Shown piece by piece: positions 53,833 through 58,980 of a stretch of 64,000 nucleotides of DNA (position 1 is the first letter of the stretch; every line of letters starts with the position of its first letter). The notes beneath the pieces are model-generated. The model saw only the letters and a list, made by a program, of their open reading frames with translations. It did not search any database and was not told where the DNA came from. The DNA is taken from NCBI GenBank assembly GCA_003512525.1, contig DOQG01000071.1:1587-65586 (forward strand), in the 5' to 3' direction. Source of the stretch: Oscillospiraceae bacterium (lineage in GTDB: Bacteria > Bacillota > Clostridia > Oscillospirales > Ruminococcaceae). The position numbers and the translations under genes are program-made.

Positions 53833-54219
53833 TCATTCGTTGTCAGGCTTGCTTTTGTCTGTAAATTCACTTTTCTTGTCGCCGCTGAACAATTGAGATA
53901 TGCCGATGTAAAGCAGAAATGCCGCAAACAGCTTTCTGAGAATTTCAACATCAATAATTCCGGCGACAAAACTTCCCACAGCAGCACAGGGAAGTCCGAG
54001 TATCAGATATTTACCGACAAGCTTAAGGTCGATCAGCTTGTTTTTTATATGGATTATGAGAGATAGCAGTGCAATGGGCAGAAAAAACAACAGATTTATT
54101 CCCTGCGCCAGATCCTGAGGTGTATTTGTAAAGATCGAAAGATACACAAGCAGAACAAAACCACCGCCAAGTCCCATTGATGCAGCGGCACCTGTTATAA
54201 GACCGACAAAAATATTCAT
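53833..54219 (-). CDS. TauE/SafE (TSUP) family transporter, C-terminal 4-TM half
   Basis: 128 aa, 4 TM, GxGGG-like motif MGLGGGF. ATGA overlap with the upstream half. Confidence 0.6.
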   Translation of the reverse strand: MNIFVGLITGAAASMGLGGGFVLLVYLSIFTNTPQDLAQGINLLFFLPIALLSLIIHIKNKLIDLKLVGKYLILGLPCAAVGSFVAGIIDVEILRKLFAAFLLYIGISQLFSGDKKSEFTDKSKPDNE

Positions 54220-54563
54220 ATAAGCATCCTCAATGCGCCGGCTATTATCAGTATTCCGAACATCTTTTTTATCAGTTTGTCAGGGATTTTCTTAAGCAAT
54301 ACCGCTCCGAGCACTGCGCCGATCAGTCCGTAAGGAATGTATTCCCACGCCGCCGTAAAGTCGATTTTGCCGTTTATAAGGTAAACAACTGCCGTGACAA
54401 GACTGAGAACGAATATGAGCGCTACCGACGAAGCGTGAGCTTTTTTAGGTTCTGCGCCGTTTTTTTCAAAGGCAGGAACTGCGACCGTGCCGCCGCCTGA
54501 GCCGAAAAGTCCGTTCAGAAAGCCGCAGATAGCGCCGTAAATAAGTCCGATATATTTATTCAT
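54216..54563 (-). CDS. TauE/SafE (TSUP) family transporter, N-terminal 4-TM half
   Basis: 116 aa from MNKYIGL; GSGGGTVAVPAF motif. Together with the downstream half this equals one full-length TSUP protein. Confidence 0.6.
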   Translation of the reverse strand: MNKYIGLIYGAICGFLNGLFGSGGGTVAVPAFEKNGAEPKKAHASSVALIFVLSLVTAVVYLINGKIDFTAAWEYIPYGLIGAVLGAVLLKKIPDKLIKKMFGILIIAGALRMLI

Positions 54564-54608
54564 ATCAGTAGTTTTTGCGTTAATAGTCGGTTTATGCAAA
54601 TTGAAAAG

Positions 54609-54645
54609 CCGTACTGTTTTTAGCAGTACGGCTGTTATTTTTGAG
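54609..54645. terminator. hairpin with flanking T-runs on both strands, located 45 nt upstream of the tauE start on the - strand (terminator or attenuator)
   Basis: gccgtactg/cagtacggc stem. Confidence 0.6.
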
Positions 54646-54836
54646 ACCACCTTGCCGTGGTATGACGATGAAACCCGCACATAAAAGTACGGTGGGTAAC
54701 TTTCCCCCGAATGTTTCACGCTCCCTTCGTCCGCAAAGCGGGAGGTCTGCAATCCGCAAACGGAGAGAAATCCCTATTAAAGAGTGTCGGATCATATGAA
54801 ATCATACTGAAGCGCACAAGGCAGTGTAATAACTGA

Positions 54837-55145
54837 TTATTCGTCTTCTTCGTCAAGCTCGTCGAAGACTTTGAAAAATTCTTTTGCAACACGATCATAT
54901 TCTTTATCGTCATCGATCGTTGCAAGATAAACTTCATCGTTCTTGTTTATTTCTTTGAGGATCACATATACGTCGCTGTCGGCGTTTTCGTCATCTTCTT
55001 CGGGAATGACGGCACAATAGTTGCTACCGTCTACTTCAATTCTTCCGATAAGCTCAAAAGAAACGGTTTCGCCGTTTTCGTCCTCGAGGTCAATGAACTC
55101 AGCAGTGTCTAAGTCGTTTTCGGGGATATTTTCGATTTCTGACAT
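54837..55145 (-). CDS. DUF1292-family small acidic protein
   Basis: 102 aa, extremely acidic, with the pattern ..DENGETVSFELIGRIEVDGSNYCAV..VYVILKE.. Confidence 0.6.
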   Translation of the reverse strand: MSEIENIPENDLDTAEFIDLEDENGETVSFELIGRIEVDGSNYCAVIPEEDDENADSDVYVILKEINKNDEVYLATIDDDKEYDRVAKEFFKVFDELDEEDE

Positions 55146-55426
55146 TCTTTATTCCTTCCTTTTCCGAGGACCTTGTTCCGGACATTTCGCCTTTCTTTTA
55201 AGACCTCTGTTCTTTATTTATAATTTTACACGAAATGCATGGTATTGTCAAGAGGTATTTTATGATTTTTTCACAGTGTTATCCTTGATGGTAGAAATTG
55301 TCGATTTTCTTTTTGTTAGGTTATTAACACAGCTGAAAATCCTGTTTTATGTGTAACTTGTGTAACTATGTGACTTATATACAAAACGCAGCTGTGCAAT
55401 TTGTACAATTTTAAGCTGTAAAACTG

Positions 55427-55455
55427 TTGACATTGTTGTTTTCTTGTGGTATCAT
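55427..55455 (+). promoter_or_regulatory. near-consensus promoter (TTGACA-17-TGgTATCAT) reading into an ORF-free region
   Basis: Read directly from the sequence. Confidence 0.5.
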
Positions 55456-55595
55456 ATAGACAAGGAAAAGGAAAGTTCCCCAGACAGAACAAAACATCTT
55501 GGTGCTGACTATTTAACATTATAAAGAGGGTTTTGTTCACCGCTATATACGAGTCGGAAGCGTATATAAATACAGTCGGACAGGAGGCGAGTCCA

Positions 55596-55652
55596 ATGGG
55601 TCAAGAAATCAGTGAGTCACAGCAGTCTGTTGAGACTCGCAACATAAAGTAA
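55596..55652 (+). CDS. 18-codon sORF MGQEISESQQSVETRNIK with a perfect SD
   Basis: AGGAGG at 55582-55587, 8-nt spacer, ATG; about 130 nt downstream of the promoter above. Confidence 0.3.
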   Translation: MGQEISESQQSVETRNIK

Positions 55653-56207
55653 GAAGTGAATGGGACGATGATAATACTCATACGGTACTCATCGACACAC
55701 ATAATAAAAGGGTTTTGACCTTATAAATTGCGAGCAAAACAGCTACGGTGATATAAAAACCTTATAGCGATTGGAAAATCGCGGATTTCCGCAAAAGCGT
55801 TTATTATATAAAGCTTTCAAGGTAATATAGGTAAGGTGATTGAGATGTACAGTTTAAGACATTCAAAGAGGCAGTTTTACTGATTAAGAGCTCTGAAGGA
55901 TGTGTTGCTTATGGTAATATACACTGACTGCTTAATATGGCATCTAAGATTGGTGCTGAATGAAGAAAGACAGTGAGGTATAGTCCAATGTATTAAATGT
56001 ACAGGTAGCAGTAGCTACGAAAAATGTAAAAGTCGGTTATAGTTTAACGGCAGTAATAACGGGATGAGTTCCGTAAGGATATGCGAAGAACGCATAAAGC
56101 GATAATGACTCATAACCGATAAAACATAAGAACAATTAAATATTAAAAAATTCAGACGGGCTTTGGAGTATGTTTTGCTTCAAAGCCTGTTTCCATTGTG
56201 TGCAAAC

Positions 56208-56236
56208 TTGCATTTACCGACAAAAAGTGATATAAT
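56208..56236 (+). promoter_or_regulatory. near-consensus promoter (TTGCAT-17-TGaTATAAT) inside the ORF-free region
   Basis: Read directly. Confidence 0.5.
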
Positions 56237-56620
56237 CAGAAAAACGCGATTAAGGAGATTACTATAATAAAATTACCGAAGATATACAGCAAATTCAATT
56301 AAAGCGATGTACGAGAAGCTTAACCTTGATGTAGAAACAGTAATGCTGTAATACGATTATTTTGATGCGTTTTCAAATTTTTATGAGATGTTACCTTTGA
56401 TAGGCATTATATCACGTTTGAATAACTTTACAAGAACACCGGTAAATCGTGGATTTACACCTGTCGAGCTTAATCAACCCGGCAGTGGTCTGTCTGCCGG
56501 TAGTGTAGTATTTGAAGAAGATGGCGCATTACCTCTTAATGTTATAAATTCTGTTCCGTTAAGCGGAATATAATAACAATATTTAAAGCAGACATTAAAG
56601 CGTACTGCATATATCAAAAA

Positions 56621-56656
56621 AGCTGTGGTTTCGTTTGTGAAACCACAGCTTTTATT
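56621..56656. terminator. bidirectional terminator (typA on -, unknown transcript on +)
   Basis: 11-bp stem agctgtggttt/aaaccacagct flanked by an A-run and a T-run. Confidence 0.8.
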
Positions 56657-56666
56657 GTGTCCGGTT

Positions 56667-58505
56667 TTAAGTGTTCTGCTTTCTTCTCTTAGCATCTTCC
56701 TTGGCACGAAGGTCATTGTCGAGAATTTTCTTTCTGATACGGATCGTCTTGGGCGTTACCTCGACAAGCTCATCATCGTTTATAAATTCAAGGCTTTCTT
56801 CAAGACTCATTCTCTTGTAGGGGATAAGTCTTAATGCGTCATCACTGCCGCTGGCTCTTGTATTTGTCAGGTGCTTTTTCTTGCAGACGTTGACATTGAT
56901 ATCGCCTGCCTTGGGAGATACGCCGACAACCATACCTTCGTATACGGGAACACCTGCATCAATGAACAAAGTACCTCTTTCCTGAGCATTGAACAGACCG
57001 TAAGCCATAGCTGTACCTGACTCAAACGCAACAAGTGAACCGACTGTTCTGGTGGGGATTTCACCCATATAAGGACGGTAGCTGTCGAAAACGGTATTCA
57101 ATACACCCTCACCTTTTGTATCTGTCATAAACTCGCTTCTGTAGCCGAACAGACCTCTTGAGGGGATAAGGAACTCAATTCTGGTTCTGCTACCTACAGG
57201 TTGCATATGAACAAGCTCAGCTTTTCTTACGCCCATTTTTTCCATAACAGAGCCGACACAGCTATCGGGCACGTCAATAAGCAGACGTTCGATAGGTTCA
57301 CATCTTACGCCGTCAATTTCTTTGAAAAGTACACGAGGAGTACTTACCGAAAGCTCATAGCCCTCACGGCGCATTGTTTCAATTAAGATCGACAGATGCA
57401 TTTCGCCTCTGCCGGCAACGTTATAAGCATCTGAGTTTTCACTGTCGGTAACTCTGAGCGAAACGTCCTTTAAAAGCTCCTTGTGAAGACGTTCTCTTAT
57501 CTGACGAGAGGTTACAAATTTTCCCTCTCGACCGGCAAAGGGGCTGTCGTTTACCGAGAAAGTCATTTCTACTGTAGGCTCGCTTATCTTTACGAAGGGG
57601 AGAGGCTCGGGGTTGTTTACAGAGCAGATAGTCTGTCCGATTGTGATACCCTCGATACCTGATAAGCATACGATATCGCCTATCGTAGCCTCAGTCACAG
57701 GAACCTTGTTCATACCCTCAAAAGTGTAAAGGCTTACTACCTTTGACTTGAAGGGCTTGTGCGAACCGTTGTAATCGCACACCATAACTTCCTGGTTCTG
57801 TTTTATTGTACCTCTTTCAATTCTGCCGACTGCAATTCTGCCTACATAGTCATTGTAGTCGATGGAAGAAACGAGCAGCTGCAAATCACCGTCCGGATCA
57901 CCCTCGGGGCAGGGAATATGCTCAATTATCTTGTCAAACAGCGGCTTAAAATTTTCTCCCATAACATCGGGTGAGTATGAAGCGACACCGTTTCTGCCGG
58001 AGCAGAAGATAACGGGGCTGTCGAGCTGTTCATCTGATGCATCAAGGTCGAGCAGAAGTTCAAGAACTTCATCTACTACTTCCTTATTTCTGGCATCGGG
58101 GCGGTCTGTCTTGTTAACTACAACAATAACCTTAAGACCCAAGTCAAGTGCTTTCTGAAGGACAAATCTTGTCTGAGGCATTGTACCCTCAAAGCTGTCA
58201 ACAAGGAGCAGTACGCCGTTTACCATCTTTAATATACGTTCCACTTCGCCTGAAAAATCTGCGTGTCCGGGAGTGTCAACGATGTTGATCTTAACACCGT
58301 TATAGTGTGCGGCGGCATTTTTTGCAAGGATCGTGATACCACGCTCTCTTTCAAGTGCGTTGCTGTCCATTACGCGGTCTTCTACTTCCTGATTGTCACG
58401 GAATACGCCGCCTTGCTTCAGCATTTCATCGACCAGTGTTGTCTTGCCGTGGTCAACGTGTGCGATTATAGCTATATTTCTTAAATCTTCTCTTTTCAAC
58501 GTCAA
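56667..58505 (-). CDS. typA: translational GTPase TypA/BipA
   Basis: [15 protein letters not shown]1, DTPGHADF G3, EF-G-like domain order; TTG start. Confidence 0.95.
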
Positions 58506-58629
58506 GTCTCCTTCTTCGCATAAATTCTGTCTTTATCCTTATAATTATACTCATTTTCTTCGATTTTTACTAGATTATATTTAGATAATTTTGCACAAGT
58601 GATAAAAGTTTCGCTTGTCTATTTTTCAC

Positions 58630-58661
58630 AAAAAAATCGGGAGTCCCCGCAGGGACTCCCG
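58630..58661 (-). terminator. rho-independent terminator directly after the 47-aa sORF
   Basis: cgggagtccc/gggactcccg stem followed by ATTTTTTT on the - strand. Confidence 0.8.
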
Positions 58662-58676
58662 GTTGAGTTGGCGTTA

Positions 58677-58820
58677 TCAGCAGCCGCATCCTCCGCAGTT
58701 ATTGCCGCAACCGCCGCCGCAGCCGCAGTCGTTATTGCCGCAGCCGCCGCTGTTACCACAGCAGGCAAATAAGAGAATGAGAATAATGATCCACCAGCAA
58801 GAGTTGTTTGAACAGAACAT
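58677..58820 (-). CDS. 47-aa Cys/Gly-rich small membrane peptide (MFCSNNSCWWIIILILLFACCGNSGGCGNNDCGCGGGCGNNCGGCGC)
   Basis: RBS GGAGGA, 8-nt spacer, ATG at 58820; TGA stop at 58677-58679; strong terminator 15 nt downstream. Not in the ORF track because it is under 60 aa; the two longer overlapping ORFs in other frames look spurious. Confidence 0.6.
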   Translation of the reverse strand: MFCSNNSCWWIIILILLFACCGNSGGCGNNDCGCGGGCGNNCGGCGC

Positions 58821-58980
58821 AATATGTTTCCTCCGTTTAGTATTTGAGCATAGCCGTTTGAGCGTTGCTCATAGTACATAATATGCCGTTGGTTAAAATG
58901 TGTTACTGCTTTTTACTTGTCCGCTGTGATTAAAGAGTAAAAATCTGCCTATAATTGTATATGAGAAAGGCGGTCATATT

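Follow-up and report, generated by a model that had tools for sequence, protein, structure and literature searches.

Results

The gap between the DUF1292 gene and typA holds two unrelated elements

In the window, the whole 64-kilobase (kb) stretch of Oscillospiraceae DNA analysed here, about 1.5 kb without genes separate a DUF1292 gene (54837–55145, − strand; Pfam PF06949) from typA (56667–58505, − strand). An earlier reading of the same DNA (the original prediction) had pointed to a block free of open reading frames (ORFs) at this place, and the gap is the largest such stretch in the window: in a crude ORF tiling it measures 1310 nucleotides (nt), the second largest 442, and the median is 41. 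Its further statement that the block lacks any ORF of at least 60 amino acids (aa), one of 61 aa apart, has to be qualified, as ORFs of 74 aa (55316–55540, − strand) and 80 aa (56474–56716, − strand) overlap the edges; the 74-aa ORF is not retained in relatives.

Cross-species alignment (blastn, MAFFT) divides the ORF-free block into two segments, and the gap is in fact two unrelated things: a probable RNA gene of ~740 nt on the + strand (55461–56197), hereafter unit 1, and behind it a decayed protein gene (56208–56610). The block had been proposed as a single locus giving two transcripts. The first of these behaves as a conserved RNA gene; the second is what remains of a gene for a 266-aa protein. 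Unit 1 and its flanking signals are as follows:

55461–56197, + strand: RNA gene (unit 1), ~737 nt in the window and ~840 nt in the L048 lineage
55427–55455, + strand: promoter of the RNA gene, TTGACA, 17-nt spacer, TG-n-TATCAT, matching the consensus at 11 of 12 positions
56157–56197, + strand: intrinsic terminator of the RNA gene, a 14-bp stem (56157–56170/56176–56189) followed by UUUCCAUU
55348–55411, no strand assigned: repeat block upstream of the −35, TGTGTAAC / TGTGTAAC / TATGTGAC at ~9-nt spacing, then the near-palindrome TTGTGCAATTTGTACAA

Unit 1 is under nucleotide-level selection in eight related lineages

The DUF1292 protein retrieved six close loci from species-representative genomes (metagenome-assembled genomes (MAGs) labelled Ruminococcaceae or Ruminiclostridium sp.), and the whole gap aligns with these loci at 81–87% identity (blastn, MAFFT). 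A more divergent lineage (L048, L049, L050, L056, L058 and L060) was reached through the neighbouring 266-aa-family protein, and metagenome contigs scanned with an 18-mer gave 27 loci, of which 10 were true homologues and none was a new lineage. By nhmmer, homologues of unit 1 are present in eight species-level lineages, pairwise 82–95% identical in the RNA region. One homologue, L004 (CAVJKI010000194.1), is a 4.3-kb contig that carries the DUF1292 gene (90% aa identity) and the RNA and is filed under Sodaliphilus sp.; we take Sodaliphilus to be a Bacteroidales genus, and the contig is probably a binning contaminant in that MAG.

Unit 1 is single-copy: it occurs once in the window and once at each locus, and its place on the chromosome is constant, beside the DUF1292 gene, from which it is divergently oriented in all eight lineages. 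The L048 lineage has other genes than typA downstream: in L048, L049, L050, L056 and L058 the order is DUF1292, RNA, 267-aa gene, then a helix-turn-helix gene and others, and in L049 a ClpB-like gene stands near DUF1292. Since this order differs from that of the window, the locus has been rearranged around a conserved core of DUF1292, RNA and gene. Sister clades, whose TypA proteins are 92, 91, 89 and 86% identical, have neither the RNA nor the 266-aa gene near typA, and distant DUF1292 loci show no large upstream gap and no nhmmer match to the RNA. Judging from the loci examined, unit 1 appears to be restricted to a small group of gut Oscillospiraceae/Ruminococcaceae that forms one genus-level clade.

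How strong is this conservation? Between lineages, identity over the 5′ half of unit 1 is ~89%, with invariant blocks of 20–37 nt, and the onset of conservation coincides with the unit 1 promoter. For comparison with neutral sequence, the spacer at 55276–55349 is 55% identical, and the four-fold degenerate sites of typA are 57–65% identical to the window copy. Thus, unit 1 is under purifying selection at the nucleotide level. A protein-coding sequence would be recognized by an excess of third-position changes and by amino-acid conservation above that of the nucleotides, and unit 1 has neither signature: its variable columns show no 3-base periodicity (61/56/58 across the three codon positions of the whole unit), and every frame on both strands holds 6–24 stop codons.

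Unit 1 has its own conserved promoter and terminator

As a stand-alone noncoding RNA (ncRNA) gene should, unit 1 has its own promoter and its own terminator, both on one strand and both conserved in orthologues. The promoter at 55427–55455 is the one originally predicted, with 17-nt spacing and a near-consensus extended −10 that includes the TG. Across the eight lineages the −35 always has its TTGAC and the −10 is preserved, and the 14 nt between them are only 56% identical. That the hexamers are kept while the spacer varies argues that the promoter is real. Pattern scans of promoter-like sites (9 against 7.0 expected) and terminator-like sites (3 against 2.3) do not rise above chance, so the sites owe their credibility to conservation across species and not to the pattern match. 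From the position of the −10, the transcript is predicted to start at ~55461–55463, and its end is placed in the U-rich tail after the terminator hairpin.

The terminator-like hairpin that had been predicted inside the block was found as a 14-bp stem at 56157–56189 with UUUCCAUU downstream. In 5 of 12 sequences this stem carries a compensatory G-C to A-U change. Its G-U pairs, like those elsewhere in unit 1, would be mismatches on the opposite strand, and the z-score of the minimum free energy (MFE) of folding is −4.0 on the + strand and −2.8 on the − strand; both observations favour the + strand as that of unit 1.

Upstream of the −35, Tandem Repeats Finder reports 9-nt repeats at 55348–55372 and 55393–55411. 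The whole repeat block (55348–55411) lies between the divergent DUF1292 and RNA promoters and is 87.5% identical across lineages, against ~55% for its flanks. It is probably a transcription-factor operator that serves the RNA promoter, the divergent DUF1292 promoter or both. On the DUF1292 side, the 5′ untranslated region and the − strand promoter (TTGACA-17-TAAAAT, 55251–55223) are likewise conserved, within 55146–55275. The purine-rich start of the RNA (first 16 nt, AAGGAAAAGGAAAG) almost repeats the ribosome-binding region of the DUF1292 mRNA, GGAAAAGGAAGGAA; the match is in the sense orientation, and the two do not complement each other.

Could unit 1 have no function, as a decayed gene or mobile-element relic that is conserved only because the species are close? 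The adjoining segment is a pseudogene and the element is limited to one narrow clade, both of which fit such a relic. However, neutral DNA in the same genomes is ~55–65% identical, against ~85–89% for unit 1 with its invariant blocks, and the conserved promoter and terminator, the compensatory changes in the latter and the lack of protein-like periodicity all speak against decay. No match to unit 1 was found in viral contigs (searched with two 20-mers) or in phage and plasmid records (blastn), which, together with its single copy, speaks against a mobile element, phage or plasmid relic. We consider a non-functional unit 1 extremely improbable.

Unit 1 contains three conserved small ORFs

Three small ORFs (sORFs) behind Shine-Dalgarno (SD)-like sequences lie inside unit 1:

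55584–55652, + strand: SD AGGAGG (55584–55589), 8-nt spacer and sORF1, 18 codons at 55596–55652 (MGQEISESQQSVETRNIK)
55845–55883, + strand: sORF2, 12 codons, MYSLRHSKRQFY, behind GGUGAU, intact in all lineages covering it
55911–55976, + strand: sORF3, 21 codons, overlapping the covarying hairpin 55939–55945/55951–55957

The 18-codon frame behind a perfect AGGAGG had been predicted, and it is present, with its ATG at 55596 and its stop at 55650–55652. Its start, stop and length are kept in 8 of 8 lineages, and its SD is predicted to be mostly unpaired (probability 0.5–0.8). In sORF2 the last two codons vary, always encoding F or Y, and the stop changes from TGA to TAA in L004.

Is unit 1 then mainly an mRNA for very small proteins (18 aa, MGQE.SESQQSV...; 12 aa, MYS.RHSKRQ(F/Y)(F/Y); and possibly 21 aa), with its conservation reflecting translational control elements? 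Several features agree with this: (i) all three sORFs are open frames that have retained start, SD, stop and length wherever a lineage covers them; (ii) a perfect AGGAGG at 8 nt would arise by chance with a probability of only ~1–3%, as estimated from the RNA composition, and this SD is predicted to be accessible; and (iii) the changes at the end of sORF2 preserve both the F/Y character and the stop. The pattern of substitution is nevertheless not that of selected peptides. Variable columns show no third-position excess in any of the three frames (4/4/5 in sORF1, 1/3/3 in sORF2 and 4/4/5 in sORF3), and stretches of 22–37 nt carry no synonymous change, although typA four-fold sites are only ~60% identical. 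One such stretch, 22 consecutive nt in sORF1 (AGTGAGTCACAGCAGTCTGTTG), has no synonymous change in any lineage, whereas codon 5 may stand for I, L, S, V, T or K and the last third is free to change. The even spread over codon positions and the invariant AGTGAGTCACAGCAGTCTGTTG indicate that the constraint on sORF1 acts on the RNA and not on the peptide.

The other two frames fare no better as genes. The SD of sORF2 is mostly paired in predicted folds (probability unpaired 0.2–0.35), which makes its translation doubtful. The SD-like sequence of sORF3 is also mostly paired, and its amino-acid changes are radical and fall at positions of the covarying hairpin; sORF3 is probably not a gene. Moreover, the sORFs together cover only ~160 of the 740 conserved nt. 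We therefore hold it unlikely that unit 1 is primarily a small-protein mRNA. What the folding models and alignments do allow is that sORF1 may be a plausible translated element within an RNA whose conservation coding does not explain.

Unit 1 is predicted to fold into many helices

RNAalifold, run on 14 sequences, predicts 202 pairs in unit 1, with standard pairs in 97.6% of cells. Elements of this model include the following:

55487–55538, + strand: 5′ domain hairpin with a 9-bp stem (55487–55495/55530–55538), an inner helix (55500–55508/55513–55521) and an almost invariant apical region
55612–55640, + strand: hairpin inside sORF1, 12 bp with a 3-nt loop, all pairs kept, one U-A changed to U-G
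55887–55888, + strand: insertion site, 76 nt in the L048/L056/L058/L060 lineage, at a predicted hairpin tip
56059–56074, + strand: variable hairpin with a compensatory G-C to A-U change, longer and of different sequence in the L048 lineage

The outer stem of the 5′ domain shows a compensatory change from C-G to U-A. Within the 37-nt invariant block the L048 lineage carries only four substitutions, and these sit at two pairs predicted for the inner helix (G.U to C-G and G.U to A.C). Further downstream, the closing pair of the hairpin at 55939–55957 covaries as A-U, G-C and U-A. The 76-nt insertion could, by eye, form a stem-loop of its own (CAGCUU/AAGCUG, UAUCCU/AGGAUA and AUCGGC/GUCGAU). Insertion at hairpin tips and hairpin replacement are the usual ways in which structured RNAs change length. 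The secondary structure of unit 1 is to be taken as a working model, not as a result.

The downstream segment is a decayed gene

The segment that follows unit 1 comprises three features:

56208–56236, + strand: promoter of the decayed gene, TTGCAT, 17-nt spacer, extended −10 TGATATAAT
56252–56573, + strand: remnant of the 266-aa gene, with SD AAGGAG at 56252–56257 and its former start at 56264
56618–56653, both strands: bidirectional intrinsic terminator, arms 56618–56632/56639–56653 of 15 nt, 100% complementary, with a 6-nt loop

The segment 56208–56610 is almost certainly a pseudogene: an intact orthologue stands at the same locus in relatives, and the window copy bears disabling lesions. 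In L001 (L001:4092-4892) and L002 the 266-aa ORF is intact behind the same AAGGAG and promoter, with an ATG in place of ATA; in L048 the corresponding gene is called as 267 aa. In the window, by contrast with these intact copies, the ATG has become ATA at 56264, 2 nt are deleted near 56284, an in-frame TAA is present near 56349, and ~480 nt (codons ~47–209) are deleted at 56399/56400. Consistent with the large deletion, tblastn of the intact protein against the window finds that residues 1–46 and ~210–266 survive.

These lesions account for two oddities named in the original prediction. The AAGGAG at 56252–56257 indeed has no start codon in place, because the start ATG became ATA. The weak 61-aa ORF without an SD is also there (56388–56573), and it is the surviving C-terminal ~57 codons of the 266-aa gene. 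The second promoter has the spacing of 17 nt and the extended −10 TGATATAAT ascribed to it, but its −35 is not consensus (TTGCAT, 3 of 6), so that our scan passed over it. L001 and L002, with an intact gene, have the same promoter sequence; in L005, with a broken gene, this promoter has degenerated. The strong bidirectional terminator is a perfect 15-nt inverted repeat at 56618–56653, flanked by A and T runs and conserved in relatives, and serves typA on the − strand as well as the former gene on the + strand. For an RNA at this place the prediction fails on its own terms: it had named beforehand, as the finding that would count against it, orthologous loci with an intact gene that is decayed here, and this is what those loci carry. 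The segment is a case of ordinary gene decay in which an RNA annotation is unwarranted.

The intact 266-aa protein has no Pfam or NCBIfam match, and its AlphaFold model (predicted local distance difference test, pLDDT, 81) has no fold match in the PDB. The orthologue is 41–49% identical over ~90% of its length to Oscillospiraceae proteins of ~319 aa that end in a SEC-C motif (PF02810). Unlike these proteins, with their C-terminal SEC-C motif, the 266-aa copies of the clade are without it.

Does unit 1 serve this gene, as a long cis-acting leader or attenuator that controls read-through of the 56157–56189 terminator? In every lineage that has the gene, the RNA lies immediately upstream of it and is co-oriented with it, the terminator hairpin stands between the two, and an alternative fold allows the SD to pair with the 5′ GUUCCCC segment. 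Yet the 266-aa gene has its own conserved promoter, and a fragmented (L005 group), wrecked (the window) or deleted (L003) gene makes no difference to how well the RNA is conserved. The last case is the clearest: L003 keeps the RNA though the downstream gene is entirely lost, and the terminator hairpin of the RNA gene there almost abuts the typA terminator. Distant members of the SEC-C family, in turn, have no such RNA upstream. Both observations make a leader or attenuator role unlikely, and we give it only a very small chance.

Unit 1 matches no known RNA family

The covariance-model scan for known ncRNAs that the original prediction had suggested (ROOL, GOLLD, OLE, raiA, 6S and SRP) gave no family match. 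With Rfam 15 at the gathering threshold, the only hit in the whole window was a tRNA at 130–201. When the region 55100–56750 was searched at E values up to 10, the matches were terminator-driven or noise, at most 25 bits, and none was consistent; the L048 copy, the most divergent homologue, gave noise only. Thus ROOL, GOLLD, OLE, raiA, HEARO, 6S, SRP, RNase P, T-box and riboswitches were all without a covariance-model match. ARAGORN found no tmRNA or tRNA in 55000–56800, and the earlier rejection of tmRNA and RNase P is in agreement with these searches (Rfam for both, ARAGORN for tmRNA).

Two modes of action were also considered. A sponge for CsrA of the CsrB/RsmZ type was rejected: GGA is not enriched in unit 1 (12 against the 13.9 ± 3.2 that its composition predicts) and several GGA sites are not conserved. 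A trans-acting antisense RNA was likewise rejected, RNAduplex against the 96 translation-initiation regions of the window giving nothing beyond shuffled controls, by what is a crude method. In the literature we found no description of this RNA.

Other features near the locus

Two further observations concern the neighbourhood. Between typA and a clpC-like gene, 58619–58879 (− strand) is a low-complexity stretch with overlapping small ORFs, one of which would give a 47-aa product, hydrophobic at its N-terminus and rich in Cys and Gly at its tail (MFCSNNSCWW...CGGCGC); at the equivalent position a gene of 50–69 aa is called in sister clades. On the other side of the locus, a strong bidirectional terminator-like hairpin of 12 bp (54607–54633) lies inside the N-terminal extension of a 178-aa TauE-like ORF (54216–54752). 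Because the hairpin falls inside this ORF, the TauE-like gene probably starts downstream of it (~126 aa, as called in L048), which would leave the hairpin intergenic.

Discussion

What kind of gene is unit 1? On balance, 55461–56197 probably encodes a new large ncRNA, restricted to this clade, that functions as a folded molecule and is possibly also translated at sORF1. Here the original prediction has stood up well, as its first transcript combines purifying selection at the nucleotide level with a conserved promoter and terminator, some compensatory pairs and no codon signature. Covariation lends modest further support: double changes were counted at 8 pairs in 23 cells, against 0–3 pairs in 0–7 cells when the partners were slid by 1–3 columns, and none of 500 shuffles reached the observed number of covarying cells.

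Several points weigh against this reading. First, 66 of the same 500 shuffles reached the observed number of covarying pairs, so that the pair count is not above that of shuffles. Most of the 202 pairs never vary among only eight close lineages that are 82–95% identical, and the sequences are too alike for more than modest covariation support. Second, long-range helices differ between RNAalifold runs with 13 and 14 sequences, leaving no single confident global fold, and for one of these helices a competing local pairing can be seen by eye in L004. Third, all three sORFs with SD-like sequences are open in every lineage covering them. Finally, both transcript ends are predictions from sequence, an essential structured RNA would not usually have so narrow a phylogenetic range, and a role as a scaffold is one that we infer.

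How might such an RNA work? Unit 1 would be transcribed from a strong housekeeping-type promoter, with the 9-nt-periodic repeats upstream probably binding a regulator, and its transcript would end at its own intrinsic terminator. Between its many short helices would lie long stretches without variation, and these single-stranded blocks could serve to bind a protein or a partner RNA or to make tertiary contacts. The RNA may then act in trans, as a scaffold or as a ribonucleoprotein component. In addition, the exposed AGGAGG-AUG might recruit ribosomes, either to make the 18-aa peptide, as in a dual-function RNA, or to stabilize the transcript.

More speculatively, and with considerable doubt, unit 1 could be the founding member of an undescribed class of large bacterial RNA (0.74–0.84 kb) with an intricate fold, similar in kind to OLE, ROOL and GOLLD and specific to this abundant human-gut and animal-gut Oscillospiraceae clade, that would function as a ribonucleoprotein or a self-assembling RNA and might also feed ribosomes to the 18-codon sORF. 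To our knowledge, large structured bacterial RNAs beyond those of the ribosome, RNase P and tmRNA are rare. Each of OLE, GOLLD, ROOL and raiA has led to unforeseen biology, and what these RNAs do is for the most part still to be explained. The lineage that carries unit 1 is common in the gut: the protein cluster of the neighbouring gene (one lineage; P0145) has 1400 members and the TypA cluster closest to the window has 1256. With its clear boundaries and strong promoter, unit 1 is a directly testable candidate. Its presence in eight sister species, together with its absence from the loci of more distant relatives that we examined, means that the origin of a large RNA might be traceable.

How does unit 1 compare with known systems? 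Some small RNAs (sRNAs) have a dual function and also encode a small peptide, among them SR1/SR1P of B. subtilis, RNAIII/hld of S. aureus and SgrS/SgrT of E. coli. Like these, unit 1 has its own promoter and terminator and a short ORF behind a strong SD that is predicted to be accessible. It is, however, three to four times longer than SR1 or SgrS, and it differs from the dual-function sRNAs in that no target complementarity was found among the 96 translation-initiation regions of the window and its peptide is without detectable selection.

Many ROOL and GOLLD loci are associated with phage or tRNA, a link of which the viral and phage searches and the ARAGORN scan gave no sign for unit 1. Nor were OLE-type partner genes seen among its neighbours (DUF1292, the 266-aa gene and typA). 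In kind, the orphan large RNAs of Firmicutes (OLE, ROOL, GOLLD and raiA) are what unit 1 comes closest to, without belonging to any of them. Compared with OLE, ROOL, GOLLD and raiA, the range of unit 1 is far narrower, at eight lineages of one genus-level clade, and its covariation support is far weaker. The context for these large bacterial ncRNA classes is summarised in PMC12286853 and PMC12968392. Like all four, unit 1 is a stand-alone gene of several hundred nt from Firmicutes/Clostridia, with many helices, as predicted, between highly conserved unpaired stretches and with no coding signature.

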